In this document: positions 28,667 through 64,000 of the stretch, piece by piece | Position numbering within the stretch: the first letter of the stretch is position 1 | How the letters are laid out: each line of letters opens with the position of its first letter | Origin: Bacteroidota bacterium | GTDB lineage: Bacteria; Bacteroidota; Bacteroidia; Bacteroidales; FEN-979 | Length of the DNA stretch: 64,000 nt | Direction: 5' to 3' | Assembly: GCA_043810345.1 (NCBI GenBank) | Contig: JBDROF010000018.1 | Location: forward strand, 97,651 to 161,650 | Made by a program: the position numbers and the translations under genes | The notes under the pieces: generated by a model | Told to the model about the DNA's origin: nothing | Seen by the model: only the letters and a program-made list of their open reading frames with translations | The model's database searches: none

Positions 28667-28674
28667 TACCTTTG
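28667..28674 (+). promoter_or_regulatory. Candidate -7 box (TAnnTTTG) at the left edge of the biosynthetic cluster
   Basis: tacctttg lies 32 nt upstream of the ATG at 28707. Confidence 0.45.
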
Positions 28675-28706
28675 CACGTTTGGAATAACCGGGAAATCAA
28701 CAGACT

Positions 28707-29435
28707 ATGAGGCATGTATTAGTGACAGGTGGTTCCAGAGGAATTGGAAGGGCTTGCTGCCTGCGGCTTGCTGATGCAGGGCATTACATCATCATCAACT
28801 ACCTCTTCAACAAGGATGAAGCGGAAAAAACGCTGGAGATGGTTCGTGAAAAAGGGAGTGATGGGGAGTTGCTGAAGTTCGATGTATCCAGCCAGCAGGA
28901 GGTAGAAAAAGCCCTGAATGGATGGATGGAGAAACATGAAGGAGCTTATATATCCATTCTTGTGAACAATGCCGGCATCAGGAAAGATGCCCTGGTTATG
29001 TGGATGAAAGACGACGAATGGCAGGATGTGATCAACACCAACCTGAACGGCTTTCTCTATGTGACCCGAGCCCTGATAAAAGAGATGCTGATCAATAAGT
29101 TCGGCCGGATCATCAATGTGGTTTCGTTATCCGGATTGAAGGGGTTGCCCGGACAAGTCAACTATTCGGCTGCCAAAGCGGGTGTGATCGGAGCTACCAA
29201 GGCGATGGCGCAGGAGGTTGCCAAAAAGAATGTAACGGTCAATGCGGTAGCTCCGGGATTTATCCGCACCGATATGACCAAAGATATGGATGAATCCCAA
29301 CTGAAAGGGATGATTCCGATGGGACGTTTCGGCACCACTGATGAGGTGGCAGGGATCGTTGGTTTTCTTGCTTCTGAAGAGGCCTCTTACATCACAGGAG
29401 CTGTGATAAACGTTAACGGAGGACTATATACCTAA
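28707..29435 (+). CDS. 3-oxoacyl-ACP reductase (SDR, FabG-like ketoreductase)
   Basis: 242 aa. Motifs: VLVTGGSRGIGRA, NNAG, YSAAKAG, PGFIRTDM. Confidence 0.92.
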   Translation: MRHVLVTGGSRGIGRACCLRLADAGHYIIINYLFNKDEAEKTLEMVREKGSDGELLKFDVSSQQEVEKALNGWMEKHEGAYISILVNNAGIRKDALVMWMKDDEWQDVINTNLNGFLYVTRALIKEMLINKFGRIINVVSLSGLKGLPGQVNYSAAKAGVIGATKAMAQEVAKKNVTVNAVAPGFIRTDMTKDMDESQLKGMIPMGRFGTTDEVAGIVGFLASEEASYITGAVINVNGGLYT

Positions 29436-29506
29436 TTACGAATGACGAATTACGAATGACGAATTATATATTAATTTCGCTACCTCGCTACTTCGCTACC
29501 TCGCTA
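29436..29506. repeat. Two adjacent intergenic stutter repeats
   Basis: ttacgaatgacgaattacgaatgacgaatt, then ttcgctacctcgctacttcgctacctcgcta. The first word set recurs at 61631-61653. Confidence 0.9.
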
Positions 29507-29510
29507 TTTT

Positions 29511-30734
29511 ATGAATAGAGTCGTCATTACCGGCATGGGAATCTACTCTGTCATCGGGAAGAATCTCGACGAGGTAAAGGATTCATTGTACCAGGGAAAA
29601 TCAGGCATTGTGTTCGATCCGGTCCGAAAAGAGATGGGATTCCGGTCCGCGTTGACAGGGATGGTGGAACGTCCACAACTCAAAGGGATCCTCGACCGCC
29701 GGATGCGGGTGGGGATGGCTGTGCAGGGCGAATATGCTTACATGGCTACCCTGGAAGCGCTTAAAGCTTCCGGGGTTGAACAGGACTTTCTGGATCGCCA
29801 TGAGGTTGGCATTATATATGGCAACGACAGTTCTGCGGTACCGGTGGTAGAATCGGTCGACATTCTCCGGGAGAAAAAAGATACCATGATGATCGGTTCG
29901 GGCTATATTTTCCAGTCCATGAACTCAACGGTATCGATGAATCTTTCGGTTATCTTCCGGTTGCGCGGTATCAACTTTACGGTTGCAGGGGCTTGTGCAA
30001 GCGGTTCACATGCCATTGGAATGGGGTTTCTGATGATCAGGCAAGGCCTCCAGGATATTATTATCTGTGGAGGCGCCCAGGAGATCAATCCTGAATCTAC
30101 TGCCAGCTTCGATGCCCTGAATGCCTTTTCGATCCGTGAATCGGAACCTACCAAAGCATCCCGTCCATTTGACCGCGACCGTGACGGCCTGGTGCCGAGC
30201 GGAGGTGCTGCTACTGTAATTTTGGAAAGCTACGACTCAGCAGTAAAACGCGGAGCTACCATTTTGGGTGAAATGATGGGCTATGGCTTCTCCTCCAATG
30301 GGGAACACATCTCTTTACCCAACGTGGAGGGGCCACGCCGGGCGATGCAGATGGCCCTGAAAGATTCGGGTATGCCTGCCGGGGAGATAGACTACATCAA
30401 TGCCCATGCAACATCGACCCAGGCCGGCGACAGCAACGAAGCACAAGCTATTGATGATGTTTTCGGGAAAACCAAACCCATGGTGAGCAGCACCAAATCA
30501 ATGACCGGTCACGAAATGTGGATGGGGGGAGCCAGCGAGGTAGTTTACTCGACGCTGATGATGCAGAACTCCTTTGTTGCTCCAAATATCAACTTTGACA
30601 ATCCCGATGAGGTCACCGGACGACTCAATCTCGTCCGGACAACATTACCTGCCGAAATCAATGCATTTCTCTCCAATTCATTCGGATTCGGAGGCACCAA
30701 TTCTGCCATAATAATCCGCAAGTTTTCCCGCTAG
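29511..30734 (+). CDS. Beta-ketoacyl-ACP synthase (KAS I/II fold), catalytic Cys-His-His present
   Basis: 407 aa. Motifs: AGACASGSHAIG, INAHATSTQAGD, TKSMTGHEM, SNSFGFGGTNSAII. Confidence 0.9.
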   Translation: MNRVVITGMGIYSVIGKNLDEVKDSLYQGKSGIVFDPVRKEMGFRSALTGMVERPQLKGILDRRMRVGMAVQGEYAYMATLEALKASGVEQDFLDRHEVGIIYGNDSSAVPVVESVDILREKKDTMMIGSGYIFQSMNSTVSMNLSVIFRLRGINFTVAGACASGSHAIGMGFLMIRQGLQDIIICGGAQEINPESTASFDALNAFSIRESEPTKASRPFDRDRDGLVPSGGAATVILESYDSAVKRGATILGEMMGYGFSSNGEHISLPNVEGPRRAMQMALKDSGMPAGEIDYINAHATSTQAGDSNEAQAIDDVFGKTKPMVSSTKSMTGHEMWMGGASEVVYSTLMMQNSFVAPNINFDNPDEVTGRLNLVRTTLPAEINAFLSNSFGFGGTNSAIIIRKFSR

Positions 30735-30751: not shown

Positions 30752-30759
30752 TATTTTTG
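30752..30759 (+). promoter_or_regulatory. Candidate internal -7 box (TAnnTTTG) upstream of ACP-1
   Basis: tatttttg lies 9 nt upstream of the ATG at 30769. Confidence 0.35.
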
Positions 30760-30768
30760 CATCCATCA

Positions 30769-31029
30769 ATGGACATCCTGATGCAGAACGAGGAGATTAT
30801 CACTAAGATCAATCAACTCTTGATTGAAGAGATTGAGATTGATGAAGAGCAAATCCGGCATGATGCTGACCTGAAAAAGGACCTGGGCATTGACAGTCTT
30901 GACTTTGTAGATCTTTTTGTCATCATAGAGAACAATTTCGGCTTTAAAATGAAAGCCGAGGAGATGACTGATGTAAAGACCCTCCAGGACTTTTATTCTT
31001 ACGTTATCAAACGCGTTCATTCAAACTAA
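30769..31029 (+). CDS. Acyl carrier protein (ACP-1)
   Basis: About 86 aa. Phosphopantetheine site context DLGIDSLDFVDL. The ATG at 30769 or 30781 is preferred over the TTG at 30757. Confidence 0.88.
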   Translation: MDILMQNEEIITKINQLLIEEIEIDEEQIRHDADLKKDLGIDSLDFVDLFVIIENNFGFKMKAEEMTDVKTLQDFYSYVIKRVHSN

Positions 31030-31037: not shown

Positions 31038-31940
31038 ATGTCGTCATGGCAAGGAAAAACCAGAGGAGGGGTCCTGGGGTATAAAATCTTTATCTGGACC
31101 TTAAAATACCTTGGCATCCCATTTGCTTATCTCCTCCTCCGTTTTGTTGTGACCTGGTTTGTTTTCAATTCACGGGAAGCCTTCAGGGCTGTTTACGCCT
31201 ACTTCAGGAATATCCAGCACTACTCCATAGTGAAATCGGTGATCAGTATTTTCCACAACTATTATATTTTCGGACAAATACTGATTGACAAACTGGCCAT
31301 GCTGACGGGTTTCCAACATCGCTTCACGTTTGATTTCGAAGGAGAAGAGCATCTGCGACAGATGCAGGATGGAGGATTGCTGATCAGTGCCCATGTGGGA
31401 AACTGGGAGATTGCCGGAAACCTGCTGAACCGTCTCAACAAGCGGATACACATCCTTATGTTTGATGCCGAACACCAACGGATTAAAGGGTACCTTGAAG
31501 ATACCATGAAAAAGCGCAATGTCCACTTCATCATCATCCGTGAGGGCTACAATCATCTGAAAGAGATTGAACAGGCATTCGCAGGAGGGGATATCATCGC
31601 CATGCATGGCGACAGGTTCATTGAAGGGAATAAAACGGTAACGCTTGATTTCATGGGAAAACAGGCTCGTTTCCCGGTCGGGCCGGTTAACCTGGCAGCC
31701 CGGTTTCAGGTTCCTGTTTCTTACGTGTTTGCCGTCAAAGAAACGCGAACCCATTACCACTTCTTTGCCACGTCTCTGTACCGGTTTGAATTTACACGCA
31801 ACCTGAAGAAGAGAGAGCAGATTCTAAAGGAGGCCGTCGCCATTTATGTTCAAAAATTCGAAGAGATCCTGCGCAGATATCCGTTGCAATGGTTTAACTA
31901 CTATGATTTCTGGAAACCCGAACCTGATCTCATCACATAA
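31038..31940 (+). CDS. Lysophospholipid/lipid A-type acyltransferase (LpxL/HtrB-like LPLAT)
   Basis: 300 aa. N-terminal membrane helix, SAHVGNWEIAG (HX4E/D-type motif). Its length and position match the LPLAT found in aryl-polyene/flexirubin clusters. Confidence 0.75.
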   Translation: MSSWQGKTRGGVLGYKIFIWTLKYLGIPFAYLLLRFVVTWFVFNSREAFRAVYAYFRNIQHYSIVKSVISIFHNYYIFGQILIDKLAMLTGFQHRFTFDFEGEEHLRQMQDGGLLISAHVGNWEIAGNLLNRLNKRIHILMFDAEHQRIKGYLEDTMKKRNVHFIIIREGYNHLKEIEQAFAGGDIIAMHGDRFIEGNKTVTLDFMGKQARFPVGPVNLAARFQVPVSYVFAVKETRTHYHFFATSLYRFEFTRNLKKREQILKEAVAIYVQKFEEILRRYPLQWFNYYDFWKPEPDLIT

Positions 31941-31950: not shown

Positions 31951-33312
31951 ATGACCACCAAGAGGTTACTTCTTGTTTCAGCCAACCGTTTCGCGGTCCC
32001 CTATCCGGTCTATCCGTTAGGTATCTCTTACCTGCTCTCATACCTGCAGGACCGCCTGGAGGGTTTCGAGATCCTGGTATTCGACCTGAACCTCCATGGT
32101 GAAGAGGAATTTACCGACTTTCTGAGATACCATAATCCTGATTTCACTGGCGTTTCGCTTCGGAACGTAGATGATGTCAGTTCCTTTTCGCGGGAGTTTT
32201 TCCTGACAGGATACAAAGAGATCATCGACCTGATCCGGAAAACCCTTCCGGAAACAATGCTGATCATCGGGGGTTCTGCCTTCTCTATTTTCCCTGAGGA
32301 GCTGTTTGCCTATTTTCAGCCAGATTTTGGCATTTACGGAGAGGGCGAAGAGAGCCTTTATAAGCTGTTGACCAGCATCCGTGATAGAGTCCCTGTCTAT
32401 GCAATCGAAGGCCTTGTATACCAAAACGGTAACCAGATTGTAGTGAATCCAAGGAACCATTACCTCCGTTCACTCGACCTCTTCTTTTCCGGTAATCTGA
32501 TCCAGTTCTATTGGGAAAAAAGTGGTATGATGAACCTCCAGACCAAGAGAGGTTGCCCCTATGAGTGCATCTACTGTACCTACCCTCTGATTGAGGGCAG
32601 GAAGGTGAGGACACTGGACCCGGATAAGATCGTGGAGAGCCTGAAAGATCTCTATTTCAACAACCAGATCAACTACATCTTTTTTACCGATTCGGTCTTC
32701 AACATCGACCGGAAATTTAACCTTACGCTTGCCCGCAAGATCCTGAAGTCGGGTATCAAGATCCAGTGGGGAGCCTATTTCTCTCCCCATAACATGGCTC
32801 TGGAGGAACTCAAATTGTTTGCAGAATCTGGACTCACTCACATCGAATTTGGAACAGAATCACTTTCAGACAGTACACTGAAACAATACCGGAAACATTT
32901 TACTGTAAACGAGATCGTTGAGGTCTCAGATATGTGTAATGAAGCTGGAATCTATTTCGCCCATTTCCTGATACTTGGTGGTTATGGCGAAACAGAGAAC
33001 AGCATCAACGAGGGATTTGAGAACTCGAAACGGATTACAAACTCTGTCTTTTTTCCCTATGTTGGAATGCGGATCTACCCAGGTACCAGGTTGTATGAAT
33101 TGGCGGTGTCGGACGGAACCATTGATCCGGAAGACAAACTGATTGAGCCAGCCTATTACCTCGCTGATCATATTGACTACGGGAGCCTGAAGGAGCGTGC
33201 TGAACAAACAGGCAGAAGGTGGGTATTCACGGACGAGGATGTAGTGACCTTCATGAACAGATTGAGAGCACGGAACAGAAAAGGATCATTATGGCACCAT
33301 TTGAAAAAATAA
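31951..33312 (+). CDS. B12-binding-domain radical SAM enzyme (#1)
   Basis: 453 aa from ATG 31951. N-terminal Rossmann-like B12-type region (RLLLVSAN..PYPVYPLGISYL..GVSLRNVDDV..IIGGSAFSIFPEE..GEGEE). Radical SAM motif QTKRGCPYECIYCTYP. It is clearly paralogous to 58699-60141. Confidence 0.88.
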   Translation: MTTKRLLLVSANRFAVPYPVYPLGISYLLSYLQDRLEGFEILVFDLNLHGEEEFTDFLRYHNPDFTGVSLRNVDDVSSFSREFFLTGYKEIIDLIRKTLPETMLIIGGSAFSIFPEELFAYFQPDFGIYGEGEESLYKLLTSIRDRVPVYAIEGLVYQNGNQIVVNPRNHYLRSLDLFFSGNLIQFYWEKSGMMNLQTKRGCPYECIYCTYPLIEGRKVRTLDPDKIVESLKDLYFNNQINYIFFTDSVFNIDRKFNLTLARKILKSGIKIQWGAYFSPHNMALEELKLFAESGLTHIEFGTESLSDSTLKQYRKHFTVNEIVEVSDMCNEAGIYFAHFLILGGYGETENSINEGFENSKRITNSVFFPYVGMRIYPGTRLYELAVSDGTIDPEDKLIEPAYYLADHIDYGSLKERAEQTGRRWVFTDEDVVTFMNRLRARNRKGSLWHHLKK

Positions 33313-33707
33313 ATATCCCTCAGAAACCACCCATGGTGATGGTGGATAAACTCATCACGGTAGCCAACGGGATTGTGGAAACCACATTTCTAATCCGGGA
33401 AGATAACCTCTTTTGCGATCACGGCCTGTTTACCGAAGCAGGATTGGTTGAAAACATGGCCCAAACCGCTGCGGCAGGGGTGGGGAGCAAACCTTCCCTC
33501 GCAGGGAATGAACCTCCGGTAGGTTTCATCGGAGGGATCCGGAACCTGAAGATTATACGTTTCCCGGCTACTGGGGATGAACTCTTCACGAGGATTAGCG
33601 TTGAACACGAAGTTTTTGAAGCCTTAGTAGTGCAGGGTGAGGTGTTTCTGAACGACCAGCTCATTGCCTCCTGTCAACTAAAGTTATTTCTCATGCGACC
33701 AAGATAA
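33291..33707 (+). CDS. Hotdog-fold protein, FabA/FabZ-like dehydratase of the aryl-polyene-cluster type
   Basis: 138 aa. PPMVMVDKL...LFCDHGLFTEAGLVENMAQTAAA...GFIGGIRNLKI. The start is uncertain (ATG 33291 overlaps the rSAM gene by 22 nt; ATG about 33333 is the alternative). Confidence 0.7.
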   Translation: MAPFEKINIPQKPPMVMVDKLITVANGIVETTFLIREDNLFCDHGLFTEAGLVENMAQTAAAGVGSKPSLAGNEPPVGFIGGIRNLKIIRFPATGDELFTRISVEHEVFEALVVQGEVFLNDQLIASCQLKLFLMRPR

Positions 33708-33748: not shown

Positions 33749-34147
33749 ATGGAAGAACAGAAGTTTGACTATAAGTACAAGGATCCGGAACACGGACATT
33801 ACAAAGAACTCTTCTATTCATATGATAAAGACGGTAAATACGATAAACGGGTCCGGTTTCATGACGACTCTGACCGGATCTTTATTGAACAGTTTTGGGA
33901 CAGCCAGAATGCCCGGATCGAAGCAGCACGACAGAATGTTTTGTCGGGGAAAAAGAGCCCAGTTTATTATTACATGGAGAAAAACCTGCTGGATGTAATG
34001 AGTTTGAGCATGCAGGCAAAGATTTCACTCTGGCGCGTCAAGCTTCATTTCAAACCACGTCTCTTCAGGCGGTTGAGTGAAAAAACACTGGCGAAATATG
34101 CCGAAGCCTTTAACATTACGGTTGCACAATTAAAAAATATCGAATAA
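33749..34147 (+). CDS. Hypothetical protein, possible C-terminal helix-turn-helix
   Basis: 132 aa with good coding look. The C-terminal LSEKTLAKYAEAFNITVAQLKNIE resembles an XRE-type HTH. No family was recognised. Confidence 0.55.
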   Translation: MEEQKFDYKYKDPEHGHYKELFYSYDKDGKYDKRVRFHDDSDRIFIEQFWDSQNARIEAARQNVLSGKKSPVYYYMEKNLLDVMSLSMQAKISLWRVKLHFKPRLFRRLSEKTLAKYAEAFNITVAQLKNIE

Positions 34148-34165: not shown

Positions 34166-35185
34166 ATGGAACAGTCAACGATCATGATCGACTATACCCA
34201 CCACCAGGCAGGCCATTGTGAGAGTGGAACCACTTCAAACCTCTTTAAGCATTATGGAATGGATATCTCGGAGCCCATGGCTTTCGGAATAGGGAACGGA
34301 TTGTATTTCAGCTATATACCATTTTTAAAAATCCAGTATGCGCCGATGATCTCATTCCGGAACATACCCAATACAATATTCCGCAGGGGAACCAACCGGC
34401 TGGGAGCAGATGCCATCGTTATCAAAAAATTCAAAACCCCAAAAGAGTCGATGGATGCCCTTGACCGCAACCTGGAAAAAGGAGTTCCGACGGGGCTGCA
34501 GGTGGGTGTTTTTAATCTCACCTTCTTCCCCCCGGAATACCGCATGCAATATAATATGCACAACATGGTTGTGTACGGAAAAGAGGGAAATATCTATCAT
34601 GTCAGTGACACCGTGCTGGAAAAACCTCAGACCATATCTTATGATGACCTGCAGCGGGTTCGCTGGGCAAAAGGAGCGTTTGCACCAAACGGAAAGATGT
34701 ATTGGATCAACCAGGTGAATAAAAACATAGATCTTAGAAAAGCGGTCACTGATGGGATTGCCAAAACTGTTTATGAGATGATCAAGGTTCCTTTCCCCCT
34801 GATTGGCACCAAAGGAATGCGTTTCATGGCCAAAGATCTGAGGAAGTGGCCGAAAAAACACGGAAAAGAAAAAGCCTCTTTTTACCTGGGGCAAATTCTG
34901 AGAATGGCTGAAGAGGTTGGTTCCGGGGGTGCCGGTTTCCGGTTTATCTATGGTGCCTTCCTGAAAGAGGCGGGAGAAAAATTTAACAATCCGGACCTCC
35001 TGGAAGCGTCGGAGATGATGGGAATGGCGGCAAATAAATGGAGAGAGTTCTCTTACATTGGCGCACGTAACTGCAAGAGCAGATCAGAACCAACCGAAGA
35101 TTATGGGATGCTGGGAGATATGCTTAATGAGATCTCCTATATGGAAGAGAAGGTCTATAAAAAACTCGATAAAATCAAGATCTGA
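34166..35185 (+). CDS. BtrH-like (butirosin BtrH N-terminal domain + DUF4872-like) papain-fold protein
   Basis: 339 aa. N-terminus HHQAGHCESGTTSNLFKHYGMDISEPMAFGIGNGLYFSY matches my recollection of the BtrH_N pattern (H..HC....... G..lSE...fG.G.G). Confidence 0.7.
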   Translation: MEQSTIMIDYTHHQAGHCESGTTSNLFKHYGMDISEPMAFGIGNGLYFSYIPFLKIQYAPMISFRNIPNTIFRRGTNRLGADAIVIKKFKTPKESMDALDRNLEKGVPTGLQVGVFNLTFFPPEYRMQYNMHNMVVYGKEGNIYHVSDTVLEKPQTISYDDLQRVRWAKGAFAPNGKMYWINQVNKNIDLRKAVTDGIAKTVYEMIKVPFPLIGTKGMRFMAKDLRKWPKKHGKEKASFYLGQILRMAEEVGSGGAGFRFIYGAFLKEAGEKFNNPDLLEASEMMGMAANKWREFSYIGARNCKSRSEPTEDYGMLGDMLNEISYMEEKVYKKLDKIKI

Positions 35186-35967: not shown

Positions 35968-36115
35968 CAATAAATGCCAAATCACAATTAACAAATTTCA
36001 AATAAATCCCAAATTCTAAATCCCAATGATCTAAAACATATGAGAACTGATGTTTGAAATTTTGAACATTGGAGTTTGGTTGTTATTTGTTATTTGGTGC
36101 TTGATATTTGTTAAT
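35968..36115. repeat. AT-rich imperfect palindrome (about 45-nt arms) separating the ABC ATPase and permease genes
   Basis: The left arm aattaacaaatttcaaataaatcccaaattctaaatcccaatg compares with the reverse complement of the right arm, attaacaaatatcaagcaccaaataacaaataacaaccaaactccaatg. The core ..cccaatg/cattgga.tttgg is shared with 60157-60286. Confidence 0.7.
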
Positions 36116-39033: not shown

Positions 39034-39035
39034 AT

Positions 39036-39683: not shown

Positions 39684-39693
39684 CAAGGCAATT

Positions 39694-42248: not shown

Positions 42249-42366
42249 CCAGCAACCTTCACCTATTCACGGACTATCCAATACCCTTAACACGATCCCA
42301 CTGAGTCCTGCGCTCTGGGCCCTGTGCTCTTTCTCTTTGTCCTCCGTGGTTGAACAAATTTTCTGT

Positions 42367-43613: not shown

Positions 43614-43616
43614 TCT

Positions 43617-52004: not shown

Positions 52005-52009
52005 AAGGA

Positions 52010-53098: not shown

Positions 53099-53163
53099 TT
53101 TTCAAATCCCATCCGTACTTATCCGATTTCTTTGCGATCTTTGTGATATCAAACCACTACATC

Positions 53164-56749: not shown

Positions 56750-58008
56750 CTGGTCATGGATATAACAAAGGAACAACCTTTTGCCGGTTCACTCTTCAGC
56801 GAGATTTTCCATCCGTGTGCTTTACAGGTGTTTCTGACATAGAAAAGACCCAGTCCAAATCCCTTGATATCATGCACGTTTCCTGTGGGGATACGGAAAA
56901 ACTTACGGAATACCTTTTTCTGAAATGAATGAGGGATCCCCGGACCATTATCGCTGATCTTCAGAATAACAGATCTATTTTCACAATAGGTTTCAACAAC
57001 AATTGCGGGATCTTCACCTCCATATTTTGATGCATTATCCAATAGGTTGTAAATGATATTTGACAGGTGTACCGGATCCGCATGGACCTTTCCAACATCA
57101 GCGGCAAGTTTTGTCCTGACCGAAAACACTTTTCCCGAATTGCTCCGGCAGTTTTCCAGCACTGGTATGATCAGCTCATTCAACTCGACATTCTCCCGTT
57201 TCAACTCAAAGCCCGTTTTCTCAATCCGAGCGATATTAAGGACTTTATTTACCAGCATGTTTAACCTGCTGTTTTCTTGTTTTATGATGTTCCCATAGGT
57301 CAGTAACCGTTCCGGATCCTCCAGGATTGAGGGATGAGTGATGACATCTGCCGAAATATTAATGCTGGAAATTGGTGTCTTGAATTCATGCGTCATGTTG
57401 TTGATGAAGTCCTTCTGTAATTCAGAAAATCGTTTCTGCTTGAAAATCACCAGGATAGAGTAGCTGAAGAAGAGTACCAGGGCCAGCAGGATACCAGATA
57501 GGATCAACCAGATTGTCATATTACTGATGACAGTATTCTGGATGGAAGGAAACCGAATCCCGAAATAGTAGAGGTACTCACTGTATTTTGGCAGGTTGGT
57601 GGAGGGGGAAAGAGATTTATTAACACCCTGCCTGGGGATGTAATTCCCGTAGACCATTTTATCGTTATGGCAATCGTAAATGGCATACTCATAATCCACA
57701 TCCAGTCCGATCCGGGCGAACTCACTCTTCAGGTAATACTCCAGGATATTGGCATCGACAACGCTGTTTATGTTGACTACGAAGTAGTTGGAAGAAAGCT
57801 GGTTCACCGGGTTCTCATGGGGAGGAACCGTTTCATTATAGAGATACATTTTATGTGCGACACTGTTCAACCCAATGGAGATCGATTCGTTCACCTGCTT
57901 CTCATTCATATTCCAGGCCTTGAGGAGCCAATAGATCTGAATCGTGAAAATCGCGATGATAGCAACTGTCCCGAACAAGATTACGAACCTTACCTGATTA
58001 TGTTTCAT
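56746..58008 (-). CDS. Sensor histidine kinase (two TM segments, HisKA + HATPase_c)
   Basis: 420 aa from ATG 58008. H-box FINNMTHEFKTPISSI, N box LDNASKYG, DNGPGIP, GFGLGLFYV. Confidence 0.9.
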   Translation of the reverse strand: MKHNQVRFVILFGTVAIIAIFTIQIYWLLKAWNMNEKQVNESISIGLNSVAHKMYLYNETVPPHENPVNQLSSNYFVVNINSVVDANILEYYLKSEFARIGLDVDYEYAIYDCHNDKMVYGNYIPRQGVNKSLSPSTNLPKYSEYLYYFGIRFPSIQNTVISNMTIWLILSGILLALVLFFSYSILVIFKQKRFSELQKDFINNMTHEFKTPISSINISADVITHPSILEDPERLLTYGNIIKQENSRLNMLVNKVLNIARIEKTGFELKRENVELNELIIPVLENCRSNSGKVFSVRTKLAADVGKVHADPVHLSNIIYNLLDNASKYGGEDPAIVVETYCENRSVILKISDNGPGIPHSFQKKVFRKFFRIPTGNVHDIKGFGLGLFYVRNTCKAHGWKISLKSEPAKGCSFVISMTR

Positions 58009-58180
58009 CCGGGCAACCTGAGATGTGGAGTCCAAAAATAGACCAAAATCTGCTTAAAAAACGTAATTTTGCTTTTCATTAACATAATTTTACGTTACGT
58101 TAACATTGTTTTACCTTTTGTTAACATGGATATCGAATAGATGATCGGATTTTTGTACAATCAATTAAAACACAACCGAC

Positions 58181-58651
58181 ATGAAACAAGCAACACTTTT
58201 CACCATCCTCATTCTTTTTGCTGCATCTATTTCATTATTGGCCCAACAAACAACGATCACATACCATAAAGAGGCAGATAAAAAAGAAAAGAAAAATGGC
58301 CCTATAGCCAAATTTGATAAGACTGTAAATGATTTTGGACAAATTGAACAAGGCATCCCGAGAACAGCCGAGTTCACATTGACCAACGAAGGCAATGAAC
58401 CGCTCCTGATCAGCTCCGCGAAAGCCTCCTGCGGTTGCACGAACCTGAAGTATTCAACCGAACCAATTCTCCCAAAAAAGTCCACAACAATCTCAGCTAC
58501 TTACAATGCGGCAGCACCAGGTAATTTTATCAAGACAATCACTGTGCAGACCAACGCTGATACAGATAATGTGATTCTTCAGATCAAAGGAATGGTTGTA
58601 TCGAAAGATGGAACCGTGCCAGAGAAGAAGTACGTGCCAGAGAATAAGTAA
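58181..58651 (+). CDS. DUF1573 domain protein, secreted
   Basis: 156 aa with a signal peptide. FGQIEQGIPRTAEFTLTNEGNEPLLISSAKASCGCT is the classic DUF1573 signature. Confidence 0.85.
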   Translation: MKQATLFTILILFAASISLLAQQTTITYHKEADKKEKKNGPIAKFDKTVNDFGQIEQGIPRTAEFTLTNEGNEPLLISSAKASCGCTNLKYSTEPILPKKSTTISATYNAAAPGNFIKTITVQTNADTDNVILQIKGMVVSKDGTVPEKKYVPENK

Positions 58652-58746
58652 TTGCGTATCATTGCCATCATTTCCAAGATTGCACATGAATTGATTTTTT
58701 ACGTCTTATATCCTTCGTCCTTCGTCGCTCCTCTTTCTTCCTTCCT
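58652..58746. repeat. Stutter repeats between DUF1573 and rSAM #3, extending into the 3' end of the rSAM #3 CDS
   Basis: ttgcgtatcattgccatcatttccaagattgcacatgaattg uses the same words as the 21481-21557 tandem repeat. tccttcgtccttcgtcgctcctctttcttccttcc encodes (minus strand) the C-terminal tail ..RKEERGATKDEG... Confidence 0.8.
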
Positions 58747-60141
58747 GATTCTTAGCAGTGTCCTGAACATGGGTTCGGTTAGCTCTTTCTCTTTTCGCGT
58801 AAGCAGGGCTTTTTGCATCAACTCCGGTGAGGGGGAGCTTTCAGCAGATGGAAGACAATTATGGAATGTATTGCTGATCTCTTTCAGTATCTTACCCAGT
58901 TTCTTTTTCGGTGTATCTGCTGAAAAATAGTAGGGTGATGGGTAAAACAGGGATTCCCCGGGTTGGATCACACCCTCTTTCAGAGCGATTTTCTCCAGGG
59001 GTGTATTCGGATAGATCCGCAAGCCAGCATGCATTAATACCATATCTTCTTCGTTGATATACCGGCCAATAAAATTATGTGTCTGGGCAACCGTTTCAGT
59101 AGTCTCTCCCGGTCCTCCAAAGAGAAAGAACCACATGGTAGGCAAGTCATACATCCTGGTCAAGAGGGCAGTGCGCTTGATATCCCGGAAGGTGAATCCT
59201 TTCTGCAGGTTTTTAATAACGGCCGGGGCCGCACTGTCGGGAGTTACATCAATCTGTATAAAACCTGCCTTGATCATCAGTTTAAAGAGTTCATGACTGG
59301 TGTTCCTGGGATTGATCCCCATGGTCCGGAGCCGGGGACGAATATTTCTCCGGATGATGGCGCGACAGATATCTTCTGCATGACCTGCCGGTTCATTAAA
59401 GGTAGAGTCAATGAAATCGAAGGTGACCTTCCCCAACCGGTCCATGGCCTCTTCAATCTCACGTGCAATATCATCCGGATTACGGACCCTGTAACGTCTC
59501 CCCTCTATGCAGGGATAGGTACAATAGATGCACCGGAGTGCGCAACCCCTTTTGGTCTGGACACTATAGACACCACGCTCTTTGTACGGGGAAAAATCGA
59601 TGTGTCGGTCAATCTCAGAAAAAGGGATGGAGTGAAAGGGAATAAACTTTGTCACTGAAACCGCTCCTGCTTTCCTGTTCTCTTTCCTGAACACCTGCGG
59701 GAGGTGATCCACCGGTTTCTCCTTGTCCAGGCAGCGGAGAACCTCCAGGAACACCTCCTCCCCCTCCCCTGTGATCCCATAATCGGCTTCGGTCATCTCC
59801 ATGATCTCCTGCGGAAAGACACTGAATCCACTACCTCCAAGGATTACGGGAGCCTGGGAAACATGTTGAACCGGGTGGATAAAGTCACGCAGTATATCGC
59901 CGATATAAAACACCGTTCTATCAGCGACGACATCGTCGATGTTTCTGATACTGAATCCAATGTAATCGGGATCAAAGGATTTTACCTGATCCACCAGCGA
60001 TCTCCCTTCATTAAAAACCCCGTCATAGATCTTCACATCATACCAAGGTTCCAGGTACGATGCAAGTAAACAAAGTCCCAAAGGGGGAATAGGATAAGGA
60101 AATTTTTCAATATTTGTATTAACCAGAAGGACTCTCTTCAT
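58699..60141 (-). CDS. B12-binding-domain radical SAM enzyme (#3), paralogue of #1
   Basis: 480 aa from ATG 60141. RVLLVNTN..PYPIPPLGLCLL, FSIRNIDDV, ILGGSGFSVFPQE, GEGEE, QTKRGCALRCIYCTYP, GLRIYPNT. All blocks are collinear with 31951-33312. Confidence 0.88.
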   Translation of the reverse strand: MKRVLLVNTNIEKFPYPIPPLGLCLLASYLEPWYDVKIYDGVFNEGRSLVDQVKSFDPDYIGFSIRNIDDVVADRTVFYIGDILRDFIHPVQHVSQAPVILGGSGFSVFPQEIMEMTEADYGITGEGEEVFLEVLRCLDKEKPVDHLPQVFRKENRKAGAVSVTKFIPFHSIPFSEIDRHIDFSPYKERGVYSVQTKRGCALRCIYCTYPCIEGRRYRVRNPDDIAREIEEAMDRLGKVTFDFIDSTFNEPAGHAEDICRAIIRRNIRPRLRTMGINPRNTSHELFKLMIKAGFIQIDVTPDSAAPAVIKNLQKGFTFRDIKRTALLTRMYDLPTMWFFLFGGPGETTETVAQTHNFIGRYINEEDMVLMHAGLRIYPNTPLEKIALKEGVIQPGESLFYPSPYYFSADTPKKKLGKILKEISNTFHNCLPSAESSPSPELMQKALLTRKEKELTEPMFRTLLRIRKEERGATKDEGYKT

Positions 60142-60156
60142 GAAATAAACAATAAG

Positions 60157-60286
60157 CACCAATATTCAATTATCAAATAACAACTAAATACTAATGTTTT
60201 AATCTGTCAGCAGTGATTGAAATGGTTGGCAATTCGGTCATTGGAATTTGGATATATTTGAAATTTGTTTTTTGCGATTTGTAAAT
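60157..60286. repeat. AT-rich imperfect palindrome between rSAM #4 and rSAM #3 (same family as 35968-36115)
   Basis: The left arm ..caaataacaactaaatactaatg compares with the reverse complement of the right arm, caaatttcaaatatatccaaattccaatg. It shares the cattggaatttgg core. Confidence 0.65.
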
Positions 60287-61627
60287 TTAAATTACATCTG
60301 TCCCCTTCTTGATCAGCCACAGCGCTCCAACCCTTTCATGAAATTCTTCATAGGGAAGGGTTGTCTTTGTAACTGCATTAAAAAAGTTATACTTATTATA
60401 ATCATGATCGATAATCTGCTCCTTGATCTGCCGGTAATAGACGGTGCCCGGCATCGGCGACAAAATCGTATAACCGGCATACACAACCGGGTTGGCAGAG
60501 GAGTAATCAGCTAATGCTTTGAAATCATCTTTCATATAATCAAAAGGAATCACATAGTTTCCTCTGACCATGATCCCATATTCATGAAACACCTCAATCG
60601 CCTTCTGATTATCCCCTGCCGGCGATTCCTTCTTGTACCGCTTCAGCTCCTCGTCACGGAATGATTCAAAACCACAGATCACGACTTTTAACCCTCCCCT
60701 TGCCATCTTTTCAATAATCTCCGGATGGTTTGCCGCCACATCGGCCCGGATATCCATCACCAATGTTTTCTCTATCCGTTCTTCCACGATCCGGGCGAAC
60801 AGCTGATTCATGAACGCCATGTCCACCACGGTGTTGGCATCTGCAAACCGCACTACCGAGTACTCGGGAATGGATTGCAGCTCCTGGATCAGGCTTTCAA
60901 CAGTTCGCTGGTGGTATTTCCCCAGGAACTGCGTCCAGATAGAACAAAAGGTGCACTTATAGGGGCATCCAAGAGAGGTAAATACATAGGTACTTGGATC
61001 AGGGCTATTACCAACTCTATAAGTCGATATCCATTTTGCCAGATGCCCACGATCAATCGCCAGGTAATCCTCACAAGCTGCATCCCAGGGTGATGGCTTT
61101 CCAGCTGTCTTCACCAGGACACCCTGCTGCCTGATCAGAATGCCAGCTACTGATTCCAATGGCATTCCAACCGCTTTGGCCCTCATCAACTCCCTGAATA
61201 TATGTGCACACTGCCCCGGGATGACCACATCAACAGAATGATCTGTGAAATCAAAAGGGAGCAGGGTAGCATGCAATCCCCCGGCGACGGTCAGGATCTC
61301 GGGATTCACCTCCTTGACTACCTTACAGATAGTAACAGAATCGTTGAATTCCGAAGTAATCACAGTTACGCCCACCACATCCGGCCGGTGTCTCTCCACA
61401 AGCTCCTTGACAAGTTTCCGTAATGGCGGAGTGGCCGGATCAAGGTCATACTCCCCTTTTGTGTCAAACAACACTACGTCATGATCCTTCACGGCTGCAG
61501 CGACGGTCAGTAATCCCAGAGGCGGACCGATCAATTTCTTGTGGATGAATCGTTTGGCTGCCTTCGGGGCATATTTTAGAATGTTGTTTTCAGGAGAACG
61601 GGGAGGATTTATCAGGAGGATCTTCAT
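60287..61627 (-). CDS. B12-binding-domain radical SAM enzyme (#4)
   Basis: 446 aa from ATG 61627 (the TTG at 61630 is one codon upstream). B12-type N-terminus (KILLINPP..PPLGLLTVAAAV..VVGVTVITSEF..VAGGLHATL). Radical SAM motif TSLGCPYKCTFCSIW. Confidence 0.88.
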   Translation of the reverse strand: MKILLINPPRSPENNILKYAPKAAKRFIHKKLIGPPLGLLTVAAAVKDHDVVLFDTKGEYDLDPATPPLRKLVKELVERHRPDVVGVTVITSEFNDSVTICKVVKEVNPEILTVAGGLHATLLPFDFTDHSVDVVIPGQCAHIFRELMRAKAVGMPLESVAGILIRQQGVLVKTAGKPSPWDAACEDYLAIDRGHLAKWISTYRVGNSPDPSTYVFTSLGCPYKCTFCSIWTQFLGKYHQRTVESLIQELQSIPEYSVVRFADANTVVDMAFMNQLFARIVEERIEKTLVMDIRADVAANHPEIIEKMARGGLKVVICGFESFRDEELKRYKKESPAGDNQKAIEVFHEYGIMVRGNYVIPFDYMKDDFKALADYSSANPVVYAGYTILSPMPGTVYYRQIKEQIIDHDYNKYNFFNAVTKTTLPYEEFHERVGALWLIKKGTDVI

Positions 61628-61630
61628 CAA

Positions 61631-61653
61631 TTACGAATTACGAATGACGAATT
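61631..61653. repeat. Stutter repeat, same words as 29436-29465
   Basis: ttacgaattacgaatgacgaatt lies directly upstream of the rSAM #4 start. Confidence 0.85.
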
Positions 61654-61726
61654 TTAAAATGTGATGCAGAAAAGATAATCAAAGGTACATATTTAATAGA
61701 CTTAAGGCTGCCTTGTGTGGAATTGC

Positions 61727-61734
61727 TATTTTTG
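61727..61734 (+). promoter_or_regulatory. Candidate -7 box (TAnnTTTG) upstream of the GT2-DUF2062 gene
   Basis: tatttttg lies 51 nt upstream of the ATG at 61786. Confidence 0.4.
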
Positions 61735-61785
61735 CTTTGTCAACCTCGTTCCCGGATGCCGGATAGCAATTACATAAGCCAGAAG

Positions 61786-63081
61786 ATGAAATCGTTGAGG
61801 TGTTGCGTGATCATTCCAACCTACAACAATGCCGGAACGCTGGAGAAGGTGATCCGAGGAGTACAGGAATATTCTGACGACATCATCGTGGTGAACGACG
61901 GGAGCACGGATGAAACACCGGAGATCTTAAACAAGTTGGCAGCTGGCAGTTGGCACTTGGCAGAAGATGGCACGGCACCACGGCACCACGGCACCACTTC
62001 ACCAGTCACCAGTCACCAGTCACCAGTCACCATAATCACCACTTCCACCACATCCACCACATTCACCATTATCACCATCCCCCGCAACACCGGCAAAGGC
62101 TTCGCGCTCCGGCAAGGATTCAACTATGCTATTCAGCAGGGATACCGCTATGCTATCACGATCGACAGCGATGGGCAACATTTTCCGGAAGACATCCCGA
62201 AATTCATTGAAAAAACAGAAGAGGATCCTGATGCCATCGTGATTGGCGCACGGGACATGAAACAGGAGGATGTACCAGGAACCAGCAGTTTCGGACATAA
62301 ATTCTCCATTTTCTGGTTCCGGGTTGAGACCGGTCTGAGGGTCCCTGATGTACAATCGGGGTATCGCCTTTACCCGCTTAAGCGGATCCAAACCATCCGC
62401 CAATTTTACTGTTCCAGGTACGAATTTGAGGTAGAGATCCTTGTCCGGTTAGCCTGGCGGGGGGTGTCTATCCTATCGGTACCGGTGAAGATCTGGTATG
62501 GAGCAGCCGCGGAGCGTGTTTCACATTTCCGGAAAGGGAGGGATTTTGCTCGGACCAGTCTGCTCAATAGCATTCTGGTCTTTGCAGCCCTTCTCTGGGT
62601 CAGACCGTTCCATTTTACCAAAGGTCTTCGGAAAAAAAGCTTCAGGGAGATCATCCGGGAGTATTTCATCAACAGTGAGGATACCAACGCAAAATTGGCC
62701 TGGTCTGTGGTGCTTGGCATCTTCATCGGGGTATCTCCCGTCTGGGGATATCAGATGATTGTTGCTGTAGCACTGGCACATTTTCTCCGATTGCACAAAT
62801 TTGTCGCACTGGTAGCCTCCAACATCAGCATCCCTCCCCTGATCCCCATTATCCTCTTTTGCAGTTATATCACAGGAGGGTTTGTGCTTGGAGCTGAGAA
62901 CACCCATCTGGAATACTCTTCAGGCATTAATTTCCAGTGGATCAAGCAACACCTGATCCAATACATCGTGGGAAGTTTTGTTTTTGGTGCCGTGCTGGCA
63001 CCTGTGACCGGATTCATCACCTATGTTTTGCTGGTCACCTTCAGAAAGAATGTACAACTAAAAGAGATGGAAAAGAACTAA
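61786..63081 (+). CDS. Family 2 glycosyltransferase fused to a C-terminal DUF2062 membrane domain
   Basis: 431 aa from ATG 61786. GT2 motifs: CCVIIPTYNNAGTLEKVI, VVNDGSTDETPEIL, NTGKGFALRQG, TIDSDGQH. The C-terminal AWSVVLGIFIGVSPVWGYQMIVAVALAHFLRLHKFVALVASNISIPP is DUF2062-like. The track start at 61717 is an upstream GTG. Confidence 0.88.
   Translation: MKSLRCCVIIPTYNNAGTLEKVIRGVQEYSDDIIVVNDGSTDETPEILNKLAAGSWHLAEDGTAPRHHGTTSPVTSHQSPVTIITTSTTSTTFTIITIPRNTGKGFALRQGFNYAIQQGYRYAITIDSDGQHFPEDIPKFIEKTEEDPDAIVIGARDMKQEDVPGTSSFGHKFSIFWFRVETGLRVPDVQSGYRLYPLKRIQTIRQFYCSRYEFEVEILVRLAWRGVSILSVPVKIWYGAAAERVSHFRKGRDFARTSLLNSILVFAALLWVRPFHFTKGLRKKSFREIIREYFINSEDTNAKLAWSVVLGIFIGVSPVWGYQMIVAVALAHFLRLHKFVALVASNISIPPLIPIILFCSYITGGFVLGAENTHLEYSSGINFQWIKQHLIQYIVGSFVFGAVLAPVTGFITYVLLVTFRKNVQLKEMEKN
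61936..62069. repeat. Long morphing tandem repeat (about 134 nt) lying in frame inside the GT2 catalytic domain
   Basis: ttggcagctggcagttggcacttggcag..ggcacggcaccacggcaccacggcaccac..ttcaccagtcaccagtcaccagtcaccagtcaccat..aatcaccacttccaccacatccaccacattcaccattatcaccatc encodes LAAGSWHLAEDGTAPRHHGTTSPVTSHQSPVTIITTSTTSTTFTIITI, between DGSTD and NTGKG. Confidence 0.9.
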
Positions 63082-63091
63082 CCGGTGCTAA

Positions 63092-64000
63092 ATGGCTGCT
63101 TTCTTCATCCACATTTACCGTTTTTTTCGGAAATACCGCTGGGCGTTCTGGATCTTCATGGCCGTTACAGCCGGTTTTATCATCCTCTTTGCCTCCCAGG
63201 TGAAACTAGAGGAGGATATCTCCAGGATCACCTCAAAAGATGACACTCTCCATCAGGACGAGTATGTGATCCGGAATTTTAAGTTTGCTGAAAAGCTGAT
63301 TGTCCATATCCGTCAGACCGACAGTCTTGACACCCCCTGCCCCGATACGCTGATTGCACTTGCTAAACTGCTTTACGACAGCCTGATGACCCAACTTGAC
63401 TCCTCTTATATTCAATCGGCGTTCCTGAAAACAGAAGATAGCCTGTTACCATTGGTGTTGAGCCTCATCGACAATCATCTTCCCCTCTTCCTGGATGAGG
63501 ATGACTATCTGAGTCTGGACAGCCTTGGTAAGAAGACGGGACTGGAATCCATCGTCAGGAAGAATTACAAGATCCTGGTCTCTCCAGCCAGCATCATGAT
63601 GAAACGGAGACTGGTAGAGGATCCTCTGGGACTCTCCAACATTGCTCTGAGAAAACTACAGAGTCTCCAGGTAGACGATCATTATAGGCTACGGGATGGT
63701 TATATTTTTTCTCAGGACGGCAGGCACCTTCTGTTCTTCATCACTCCGACTAATCCACCAAGTGAAACCAGTAAAAACGCAAAACTGATCCGGACACTGG
63801 ATCAATTGGTCGGTCAGCTGACTGCCATTCCTGAACTATCAGAGACAGCCACAGCTCCCCTGGTCGAGATCGATTATTTCGGATCTGTGGCCGTGGCCGT
63901 TAGCAATGCAAACCAGTTGAAACGAGACATCATCCTAAGCCTTTTTCTGGCGCTGATCCTTATCCTGTTGCTGATCGGATGGTATTTCCGCAATGCAGCT
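63092..64000 (+). CDS. MMPL/RND-superfamily exporter, N-terminal 303 codons (3' end lies outside the window)
   Basis: Not in the ORF track because it is open to the window end. Hand translation from ATG 63092: MAAFFIHIYRFFRKYRWAFWIFMAVTAGFIILFASQVKLEEDISRI... ...FGSVAVAVSNANQLKRDIILSLFLALILILLLIGWYFRNAA. It has an N-terminal TM, a large periplasmic loop, then a TM bundle start, as in MMPL exporters of aryl-polyene clusters. Confidence 0.75.
   Translation, partial: MAAFFIHIYRFFRKYRWAFWIFMAVTAGFIILFASQVKLEEDISRITSKDDTLHQDEYVIRNFKFAEKLIVHIRQTDSLDTPCPDTLIALAKLLYDSLMTQLDSSYIQSAFLKTEDSLLPLVLSLIDNHLPLFLDEDDYLSLDSLGKKTGLESIVRKNYKILVSPASIMMKRRLVEDPLGLSNIALRKLQSLQVDDHYRLRDGYIFSQDGRHLLFFITPTNPPSETSKNAKLIRTLDQLVGQLTAIPELSETATAPLVEIDYFGSVAVAVSNANQLKRDIILSLFLALILILLLIGWYFRNAA

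Follow-up and report, generated by a model that had tools for sequence, protein, structure and literature searches.

A flexirubin-family gene cluster with a 12-gene thioester module and four cobalamin-type radical-SAM genes in an uncultured Bacteroidota bacterium

We have analyzed a 64,000-nucleotide stretch of contig JBDROF010000018.1 (positions 97,651 to 161,650 of the forward strand; GenBank assembly GCA_043810345.1) from a Bacteroidota bacterium; this whole stretch is called the window below. Its right-hand part is occupied by a biosynthetic cluster of the flexirubin family of outer-membrane polyene pigments, real and conserved, in which a 12-gene module and four genes for B12-binding radical S-adenosylmethionine (radical-SAM) enzymes stand among the genes of a pigment pathway. 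By open reading frame (ORF) coordinates, 32 co-directional genes lie between 28707 and 56053 with no gap larger than 189 nt, and the run goes on to the window end. The starts at 37428, 41151 and 47301 overlap the preceding stop by 4 nt, which bears out the nearly uninterrupted, translationally coupled run described in an earlier note on this sequence. The inventory is based on a six-frame ORF listing with translations, Pfam scans and NCBIfam models with curated cut-offs. Catalytic residues of the ketosynthases (KS) were read by alignment to E. coli FabF, which served as a ruler.

The run opens on the plus strand with a FlxB-type ketoreductase of the short-chain dehydrogenase/reductase type (28707-29435; NF053542 FlxB_rubin_SDR, 392.5 bits against a cut-off of 340; Pfam adh_short/KR). 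It is followed by KS1 (29511-30734; N- and C-terminal ketoacyl-synt domains), acyl carrier protein ACP1 (30757-31029; PF00550, with a DSL motif), an LpxL-type lysophospholipid acyltransferase-family protein (LPLAT; 31038-31940; PF03279) and the first B12-binding radical-SAM gene, rSAM_A (31951-33312). Next come an ApeP-like hotdog dehydratase subunit (33291-33707; weak FabZ match, PF22817 ApeP-like in its orthologues), a DarG-family protein of 132 aa (33749-34147; NF053536 DarG_fam, 110.4 bits, cut-off 70) and DarH, a BtrH-related acyltransferase (34166-35185; NF053550, 406.2 bits, cut-off 300; Pfam BtrH_N and DUF4872). A DarI/DarJ-like ABC ATPase (35188-35940) and ABC-2 permease (36130-37431), recognized by Pfam, take the position of Fjoh_1096/1095 in Flavobacterium johnsoniae. 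A 4HBT thioesterase (37428-37850; PF13279/PF03061) precedes KS12 (from 37852), a DarE-like KS stub (39030-39683) and ACP2 (39661-39951), assigned by Pfam, triad analysis and NCBIfam, and two pairs of KS and chain-length factor (CLF), KS15/CLF16 and KS17/CLF18 (39955-44717; Pfam). The remaining core genes, all on the same strand, encode a CE4 polysaccharide-deacetylase-family protein (44718-45524; PF01522), LolA2 (45418-46146; NF053544, 219.6 bits, cut-off 125), the lipoprotein LolB2 with lipobox LLTGC (46058-46852; NF053540, 81 bits, cut-off 60) and an ApeI/FabA-like dehydratase (46915-47304; PF07977, PF22818).

An intact Cys-His-His triad was found in five KS (29511, 37852, 39955, 42399 and 53546), as the earlier note had counted. 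Of the three Cys-less partners in that count, two are full-length KS partners with none of the three residues (41151 and 43617) and the third (39030) is an N-terminal KS-like stub of 217 aa. Pfam and the triad alignment also recovered its three ACPs, two 4HBT thioesterases, LPLAT, BtrH-like, ABC, CE4 and LolA-like proteins, lipoprotein and GT2-DUF2062; its three hotdog dehydratase-like proteins reduce to two, the ApeP-like protein at 33291 and the ApeI/FabA-like protein at 46915.

Five window genes (FlxB, DarG family, DarH, LolA2 and LolB2) pass curated NCBIfam flexirubin models, while the DarG-family protein misses the DarG equivalog NF053545 (111 versus 170 bits). A gene-by-gene comparison with Table S5 of PMC3992019 shows the window to be colinear with the F. 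johnsoniae cluster, taken from Fjoh_1109 down to Fjoh_1078. The KS/CLF pairs and the ApeI/ApeP dehydratase pair are present as in aryl-polyene (APE) type II polyketide synthases, and according to De Smet et al. (PMC11885536) the LolA2/LolB2 pair is confined to loci for flexirubin-like pigments and always present there. Since five curated models are passed and gene order is colinear with F. johnsoniae, the APE/flexirubin assignment made from the letters alone was correct.

The 12-gene module lies between the ApeI-like dehydratase, the final core gene ahead of it, and the GT2 gene. It opens with a YbgC/FadM-type acyl-CoA thioesterase (47301-47705; TIGR00051, 71.6 bits, cut-off 68.7; Pfam 4HBT_2), followed by two crotonase-fold enoyl-thioester hydratases (47712-48467 and 48472-49146; PF00378), a KAS III-like condensing enzyme (49151-50350, likely true start near 49241) and rSAM_B, a BchE/HpnJ-like B12-binding radical-SAM protein with a weak DUF4070 match (50427-52004). 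A 3-hydroxyacyl-thioester dehydrogenase (51950-53098, start probably later than 51950; PF02737 and PF00725), a membrane-anchored Haem_bd protein with a CxxCH motif (CLECH; 53143-53538; PF14376), a FabF with intact triad (53546-54760), ACP3 (54827-55132) and a FabD-like acyltransferase (AT; 55148-56053) complete the plus-strand part; these last three were assigned by Pfam. The final two genes, rSAM_C (58699-60162) and rSAM_D (60287-61630; HpnR/BchE-like by weak NCBIfam matches), are read from the minus strand. They are separated from the AT gene by an OmpR-type response regulator (56057-56776, minus), a histidine kinase (56746-58035, minus) and a DUF1573 protein (58181-58651, plus), all recognized by Pfam. 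Beyond the module, on the plus strand, stand a GT2-DUF2062 glycosyltransferase (61717-63081; Pfam; GenBank start 61756, accession MFH1296158) and the N-terminal 303 aa of an MMPL exporter (63092-64000) that ends at the window edge. The exporter is identified through its full-length orthologues (1284-1297 aa), in which MMPL, PlsC-type acyltransferase and methyltransferase domains are fused; the truncated window ORF that had been called an MMPL exporter has no Pfam match of its own. The genes that the earlier note listed as foreign to the family, namely four B12 radical-SAMs, two crotonases, the KAS III-like enzyme, the dehydrogenase, the CxxCH protein, FabF-ACP-AT and the two-component system, are all present by Pfam.

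Whether these genes belong to the cluster was judged from its relatives: a 5.27-Mb genome (L002/L084), an 838-kb contig (L001), a 299-kb contig (L085/L086), a Prolixibacteraceae metagenome-assembled genome (MAG; L004) and two Joint Genome Institute (JGI) contigs (L090 and L100). In the neighbourhood comparison the gene order of the window recurs in all of them at 65-90% identity, with the radical-SAM, crotonase and KAS III genes alongside the core. A scan with one genome per species gave at least 11 close orthologue loci (identity at least 45%), all in MAGs; the other 69 loci listed are distant B12 radical-SAM paralogues in unrelated contexts, with a KS or LPLAT nearby only in L020 and L071. 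For rSAM_A, rSAM_B and the KAS III-like protein, the best 120 homologues listed for each (90% identity clusters) are 62-100% identical to the query. Their named sources are all uncultured and nearly all Bacteroidales/Bacteroidota, with a few entries named only 'bacterium' and one Alphaproteobacteria. Many relatives encode LPLAT and rSAM_A as one protein of 755-774 aa, and many fuse rSAM_B to the 3-hydroxyacyl-CoA dehydrogenase (831-882 aa); one such dehydrogenase fusion, for which the collection lists 73 blocks, lies in the same gene context. Conservation within the cluster is highest for the module genes (KAS III 73-92%, FabF 70-89% and ACP3 75-96% in relatives; the FabF-ACP3-AT set as a whole 70-96%), rSAM_D keeps 67-82% identity and the Haem_bd protein keeps its position.

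Because order is conserved and two fusions join extra genes to cluster genes, the extras are physically and evolutionarily part of the cluster. Our confidence in the family assignment and in this integration is high; for the specific chemistry it is low to moderate. The radical-SAM and crotonase/dehydrogenase genes might instead be unrelated neighbours, for example a beta-oxidation set and stand-alone radical-SAM genes. Proteins like rSAM_B (58-59%) do occur without other cluster genes in Rikenellaceae and Bacteroidales MAGs (L009-L011), in one case (L010) beside outer-membrane beta-barrel, epimerase and phosphoesterase genes, and one locus (L006) separates the module from the KS/CLF genes. 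Order kept across many MAGs, the two fusions and co-directional genes with overlapping or tightly spaced starts largely refute this explanation, which we regard as very improbable.

The two-component system and DUF1573 gene, which had been counted with the extras, do not share this standing. They are restricted to the closest relatives (L004, L086 and L090), are absent from L001, L002, L006 and L100, and are a lineage-specific insert; the radical-SAM genes and the thioester cassette hold their place by synteny and the two fusions. A PNPOx-like gene (16682-17095) stands at the position of the two-component system in L002, and L086 has a MarC-family gene (5757-6371) between LolB2 and the dehydratase. 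With these insertions, the junctions appear tolerant of gene gain. In the window, a 21-nt unit (AACATAATTTTACCTTTCGTT) is repeated 3.2 times at 58060-58127, in the spacer from which the histidine-kinase operon and the DUF1573 gene diverge, and may be a candidate binding array for the OmpR-type regulator.

A more distant relative (L092, 31-53% identity) is without radical-SAM genes. Its left part reads LPLAT, class-I methyltransferase, hotdog, thioesterase, KS (with stub), ACP, KS, CLF and CE4, and its right part LolA, lipoprotein, dehydratase, GT2, MMPL fusion, phytoene-desaturase-like enzyme, C45 acyltransferase and AMP-ligase. The dehydratase directly adjoins GT2, and the equivalents of KS12 and its stub form a single ORF of 580 aa. 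This arrangement represents the ancestral layout. The right border of the window cluster was taken from L090, L001 and L100. At the right end of L090 the MMPL/acyltransferase/methyltransferase fusion is followed by a small ORF, a CrtD/phytoene-desaturase-like FAD enzyme, a C45 autoproteolytic acyltransferase and then a radical-SAM gene. The latter encodes a fifth B12 radical-SAM protein, shorter at 421 aa, where the ligase sits in F. johnsoniae (Fjoh_1075) and in L092. These post-MMPL genes lie at 14714-19335 of L090 (JGI Ga0268284_1000007), with a TonB-type receptor gene next to them.

The slot after LPLAT, which rSAM_A occupies, holds the genes for the dialkylresorcinol half, DarA (aromatase) and DarB (cyclase), in F. 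johnsoniae and the class-I methyltransferase in L092; rSAM_A fills the DarAB slot in the window and four relatives. No window ORF is left that could encode DarA, and DarA/DarB are replaced in the window cluster.

No ammonia-lyase match was obtained by tblastn anywhere in the 64-kb window, as had been noted, and none was found at the same position in a 90% relative (L097). However, the earlier suggestion that the starter may not be aromatic is weakened by a lyase of 517 aa directly upstream of the ketoreductase in L085 (82%), L084 (66%) and L099 (64%). Of these, the L085 protein was scanned with the FlxA tyrosine-ammonia-lyase model and reached 830 bits (cut-off 700). With FlxA in its relatives, the family is built for an aromatic starter. 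In the window, the FlxA slot of the relatives corresponds to 27054-28706, which holds a cpYpsA (SLOG) gene (27106-27618), a tRNA-Arg(ACG) (27710-27784), an RRM protein gene (27880-28143) and a small minus-strand ORF (28354-28599). L097 has the same layout, and the left flank of both is rearranged, without FlxA. In this lineage FlxA could lie elsewhere, outside the window, or the cluster could use imported coumarate or a changed starter. No AMP-binding match for an aryl-CoA ligase such as the 4-coumarate-CoA ligase FlxY was found among the window genes; the right border of the cluster lies beyond the window.

For the KAS III-like enzyme the best solved relative by sequence is StlD (identity about 20%), which is also the best fold match of its AlphaFold model (pLDDT 74, TM 0.70, E 2e-25). 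It keeps the active-site Cys, has Asn in place of StlD His302 and Tyr in place of the FabH Asn, and these residues are invariant in 8 orthologues. More than 120 relatives have at least 73% identity, with none fused among those listed. The crotonases are FadB-like, and every orthologue of either one keeps its two catalytic Glu residues; the dehydrogenase retains its NAD-binding and catalytic motifs. The AT matches fabD/mdcH below cut-off; its GYSMG Ser, Arg and His can be read in the sequence, and this FabD-like set suggests a malonyl-type substrate. DarB/StlD enzymes take 3-oxo- and 2-enoyl-thioesters (PMC6836626). By analogy, the module neighbours would supply beta-keto and enoyl thioesters, that is, substrates of the StlD/DarB type.

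A similar parts list is found in the beta-branching cassette of 3-hydroxy-3-methylglutaryl (HMG) synthase (AT, donor ACP, decarboxylating KS, HMGS, ECH1 and ECH2), which would place beta-methyl branches on the polyene. The resemblance is superficial, although it extends to a thiolase-fold enzyme with weak HMG-CoA-synthase matches. The FabF keeps its active-site Cys where the cassette KS has Ser, the thiolase-fold enzyme scores higher against StlD/DarB than against HMGS and has Cys-Asn-Tyr in place of the HMGS Glu and His, and both crotonases are FadB-like with both Glu residues. Such a cassette is hardly tenable here.

All four radical-SAM proteins (31951 and 50427 on the plus strand, 58699 and 60287 on the minus strand) combine a B12-binding PF02310 domain with a PF04055 radical-SAM domain and a CxxxCxxC motif; for rSAM_B the PF02310 score of 30.1 bits is just under the Pfam gathering cut-off of 32.1. 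Domains and motif place them in class B (cobalamin-dependent), and cobalamin use is predicted. They are mutually 20-29% identical, with rSAM_C 29% identical to rSAM_A. The latter is a member of TIGR04072, 'lipid biosynthesis B12-binding/radical SAM protein' (405.6 bits, cut-off 360), a model built around proposed ladderane clusters; rSAM_C, with 308 bits, falls below that cut-off and is a paralogue, not a member. The next best matches of both are aromatic C-methylases of the BzaD and TsrM types, and TsrM is the best solved relative of rSAM_A. Matches of rSAM_B and rSAM_D to BchE, HpnJ and HpnR are weak and far below cut-offs. Searches of solved structures gave weak matches of the radical-SAM proteins to TsrM, AprD4, TokK and CysS and assigned no substrate.

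We take methylation as the default, given that rSAM_A and rSAM_C resemble methylases and that the slot of rSAM_A is filled by a methyltransferase in L092. Methylases make up most of the B12 radical-SAM enzymes characterised so far. BchE-like oxidation/cyclisation and an anaerobic substitute for the DarA aromatase are live alternatives for rSAM_B and rSAM_D. It is possible, if rather doubtful, that in a cluster otherwise as we favour at least one of the B12 radical-SAM enzymes performs non-methylating C-C or redox chemistry that leads to a new carbon skeleton. Options are an O2-independent replacement of the DarA aromatase, a BchE-like oxidation/cyclisation of a beta-ketoacyl group, or ring formation or cross-linking of the polyene. 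The best family matches of rSAM_B are BchE and HpnJ, and its fusion partner is a dehydrogenase that makes beta-keto groups; rSAM_A replaces DarA/DarB by position while DarG and DarH are retained. The Spirochaetales MAG CAZYID010000027.1 (L013, 1790-11159) carries DarG-like and DarH-like genes with two B12 radical-SAM genes as well as an rSAM_D orthologue (54%) beside an rSAM_B orthologue (45%), and pairs them with a U32-family gene. The U32 family includes O2-independent hydroxylases. TIGR04072 is, in addition, the family proposed for ladderane ring formation (PMC13459092). However, the similarities to BchE, HpnJ and HpnR are all far below the curated cut-offs, the nearest matches of rSAM_A and rSAM_C are C-methylases, and the enzyme in the L092 slot is an ordinary methyltransferase.

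The reading that we favour, a flexirubin-type core with an integrated module as a second thioester line and B12 radical-SAM functionalisation, seems to us reasonably probable as a whole. In this pathway the core (FlxB, KS/CLF, ApeI/ApeP and ACPs) would make a polyenoyl-ACP, handled by the set for lipid attachment and outer-membrane export, which comprises LPLAT, DarG/DarH, the ABC transporter, CE4, LolA2/LolB2, GT2-DUF2062 and the MMPL fusion. The module would form a second, self-contained thioester line in which the FabD-like AT, ACP3 and FabF extend a chain, while the dehydrogenase and two crotonases interconvert 3-oxo-, 3-hydroxy- and 2-enoyl-thioesters. The 3-oxo and 2-enoyl products would include both types condensed head-to-head by DarB/StlD-type enzymes. 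The StlD/DarB-like Cys-Asn-Tyr ketosynthase may then join or transfer these intermediates, yielding the other half of the pigment, an alcohol or resorcinol-like moiety. The B12 radical-SAM enzymes would provide oxygen-independent C-H functionalisation, most probably C-methylation. The rSAM_B enzyme would act on the 3-hydroxy- or 3-oxo-acyl thioester of the dehydrogenase that is its fusion partner, and rSAM_A on the substrate or product of LPLAT. DarH or LPLAT could join the two halves, and the Lol/MMPL set would deliver the product to the outer membrane. This product is probably a still uncharacterised variant of the flexirubin pigment/lipid class.

Several points weigh against this pathway. 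The product and the activities of the cluster proteins are predicted from sequence. The KAS III-like protein scores 109 bits with the StlD/DarB model NF005293 (FabH 69), far short of its cut-off of 450, and 87.6 against 550 bits with the DarB model NF053539. With Asn in place of StlD His302 its chemistry may differ from that of DarB, acyl transfer being one example. The term 'CoA-level' for the cassette reflects homology only, and its enzymes could act on ACP3-bound substrates. The rSAM_B and rSAM_D proteins resemble the non-methylating BchE and HpnJ as much as methylases, with all scores far below cut-offs, and a slot that is shared with DarAB or a methyltransferase would not amount to functional equivalence. 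FlxA is absent from the window, and no aryl-CoA ligase was seen in the relatives that bear radical-SAM genes. In L006 unrelated sensor kinases precede the module and its GT2 and MMPL genes, and no KS/CLF genes lie nearby; that arrangement indicates that the cluster can be split, as are the flx and dar loci in Chitinophaga. Finally, the Spirochaetales locus has no KS or ACP within 10 kb, which suggests that the radical-SAM set may act on lipids made elsewhere.

A more conservative interpretation is that the cluster makes an ordinary flexirubin, an aryl-octaene ester of dialkylresorcinol, in which the DarB-like enzyme and the module replace DarA/DarB and the radical-SAM enzymes add no more than the methyl groups on ring or chain that SAM methyltransferases add in aerobes. 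FlxA, FlxB, DarG, DarH, LolA2 and LolB2 all occur in the family, and flexirubin carries a methionine-derived ring methyl group (PMC3992019). Four to five B12 radical-SAMs and 12 extra genes nevertheless far exceed what such a product needs. The catalytic His of StlD is replaced in the KAS III-like protein, the MMPL fusion already has a methyltransferase domain, and the window lineage is without FlxA. We therefore consider an ordinary flexirubin unlikely.

Upstream of 28.7 kb the window carries unrelated genes, among them GH31, transglutaminase-like and peptidase genes, a protein with a type IX secretion system (T9SS) tail and a pyruvate-formate-lyase-like glycyl-radical enzyme with its activase. 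The glycyl-radical enzyme, the activase and the T9SS-tailed protein point to a Bacteroidota host with an anaerobic or facultative way of life. Among species representatives a Prolixibacteraceae MAG is the nearest, and the host is an uncultured Bacteroidota bacterium, probably anaerobic. The glycyl-radical enzyme lies at 19079-21481 and the radical-SAM activase at 17339-18247, with a Mut7-C/ubiquitin-fold gene between them; a 10-nt unit (ATTGCACATC) repeated 7.5 times follows at 21481-21554. In the ORF at 51-2060 a 50-nt segment recurs four times at a spacing of 267 nt (141-991), corresponding to an 89-residue protein repeat.

Short tandem arrays with units of 7-10 nt in 3-6 copies are found mostly in the spacers between cluster genes (29434-29506, 36003-36113, 49187-49239, 50402-50434, 52025-52063, 58711-58744 and 61629-61653), and also elsewhere in the window (4926-4993, 18015-18085 and 19785-19815). 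Related heptamers, AATTACG/AATGACG, recur at 29427-29468, 50412-50439 and 61629-61656. The arrays lengthen called ORFs, for example at the N-termini of the KAS III-like and dehydrogenase genes; ORF starts of these two and of the LolA gene are over-extended into intergenic short tandem repeats. In the GT2-DUF2062 gene, four successive arrays (periods 7, 8, 7 and 9 nt; 61934-62077) give rise to a low-complexity insert in the protein, which interrupts the GT2 domain. In L001 the orthologue has 394 aa, about 60 fewer than the window ORF (454 aa), and that in L090 a similar 458 aa; from length only, the insert may be absent from L001. Since the repeat units are not multiples of three, slippage could switch the gene off. 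A promoter and terminator scan of 44.5-64 kb gave counts like those of shuffled sequence, Bacteroidota promoters being outside the coverage of the scan.

In the literature searched, no paper joins 'flexirubin' with 'radical SAM' and none names TIGR04072, and no characterised cluster of the same gene content was found. To this extent the potentially undescribed class of the earlier note stands; the presence of a TIGR04072 member and the description of similar clusters in 2009 (PMC2649909) qualify it. The new elements are the replacement of DarAB by a radical-SAM enzyme, the 12-gene module, the Cys-Asn-Tyr ketosynthase subfamily and the two fusions, while the general cluster type is already recognised. 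According to a 2026 review (PMC13459092), almost all known modification of lipids by radical-SAM enzymes concerns isoprenoids, the only acyl-type proposals being ladderanes and jawsamycin. Metagenome surveys recurrently report 'ladderane' cluster calls of unknown function in non-anammox phyla.

The cluster family brings four to five cobalamin-type radical-SAM enzymes into a pigment pathway that is well understood, with fusions that point to an acyltransferase and a 3-hydroxyacyl dehydrogenase as partners, and it is common in uncultured anaerobic Bacteroidales from many metagenomes. It accounts for many hybrid 'ladderane/arylpolyene/resorcinol' calls by genome-mining tools. If the pathway were solved, a new subclass of lipids or pigments of anoxic habitats might come to light, along with the way in which a seemingly aerobic-type pigment pathway adjusts to anoxia, and TIGR04072 could receive a first function, which would bear on the ladderane problem. 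We further propose, as a tentative idea that we think less than probable, that anaerobic Bacteroidales have rebuilt the flexirubin pathway on cobalamin radical chemistry, with the second half built or cyclised without oxygen and without DarA/DarB to give a new carbon skeleton. In this idea the Cys-Asn-Tyr StlD-like enzyme would cooperate with the radical-SAM/dehydrogenase pair that many genomes fuse, and TIGR04072 enzymes would take part too. If true, this would provide the first tractable handle on the action of TIGR04072 on fatty-acyl or polyketide chains.

Among known systems, the ladderane-like clusters share part of this tool kit. Rattray et al. (2009; PMC2649909) described uncharacterised clusters resembling type II fatty acid synthases in Kuenenia, Desulfotalea, Geobacter and Pelobacter, with radical-SAM, phytoene-desaturase-like, glycosyltransferase, phenylacetyl-CoA-ligase and polysaccharide-deacetylase genes; beyond anammox bacteria these authors detected no ladderanes. 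Cluster I of Kuenenia stuttgartiensis (KustE3603-3608) and the syntenic Desulfotalea, Geobacter and Pelobacter clusters have in common with the window TIGR04072, active and inactive KS, ACP and dehydratase. Phytoene-desaturase-like enzyme, glycosyltransferase and polysaccharide deacetylase are further shared with the window family, and anammox cluster I is the same tool kit at small scale. That the window cluster makes ladderane lipids as in anammox bacteria would fit the TIGR04072 member, the pairs of KS and inactive KS and the phytoene-desaturase-like gene of the relatives. Nonetheless, the host belongs to the Bacteroidota, encodes a T9SS protein and is not an anammox planctomycete, flexirubin-specific genes are present, and similar clusters in non-anammox bacteria yielded no ladderanes (PMC2649909); we hold such a product to be extremely improbable. 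The window differs from these clusters in phylum, in its flexirubin-specific genes and in its extra thioester module, and cyclobutane lipids are not expected.

The StlD/DarB head-to-head ketosynthases, which form stilbene and dialkylresorcinol, share the active-site Cys with the KAS III-like enzyme, whose gene differs from theirs in having no DarA-type aromatase next to it. Proteobacterial APE clusters share KS/CLF heterodimers, ketoreductase, ACPs, 4HBT, LPLAT, GT2-DUF2062, MMPL and a LolA-like protein with the window. In contrast to them, the window adds DarG/DarH, LolB2, an ABC transporter, radical-SAM enzymes and the thioester module, and no ApeH-type ligase was seen.

The nearest known system is the flexirubin cluster of F. 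johnsoniae (Fjoh_1075-1110) and the flx and dar loci of Chitinophaga pinensis (Schoner et al. 2014, PMC3992019). The order common to the window and F. johnsoniae is (tyrosine ammonia-lyase), ketoreductase, KS, ACP, LPLAT, the slot, hotdog, DarG, DarH, ABC, ABC2 and thioesterase in the first half, and KS, KS stub, ACP, KS, CLF, CE4, LolA2, LolB2, dehydratase, glycosyltransferase and exporter/acyltransferase in the second. Relatives of the window continue, as does F. johnsoniae, with a phytoene-desaturase-like reductase and a C45 acyltransferase. The window lineage differs in being without FlxA at its left border, and no 4-coumarate-CoA ligase was seen, L090 having its fifth B12 radical-SAM gene at that end. 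DarA, canonical DarB and a halogenase are also absent from the window, which has a TIGR04072 B12 radical-SAM gene in the DarA/DarB slot and, between dehydratase and glycosyltransferase, the 12-gene module with three further B12 radical-SAM genes.

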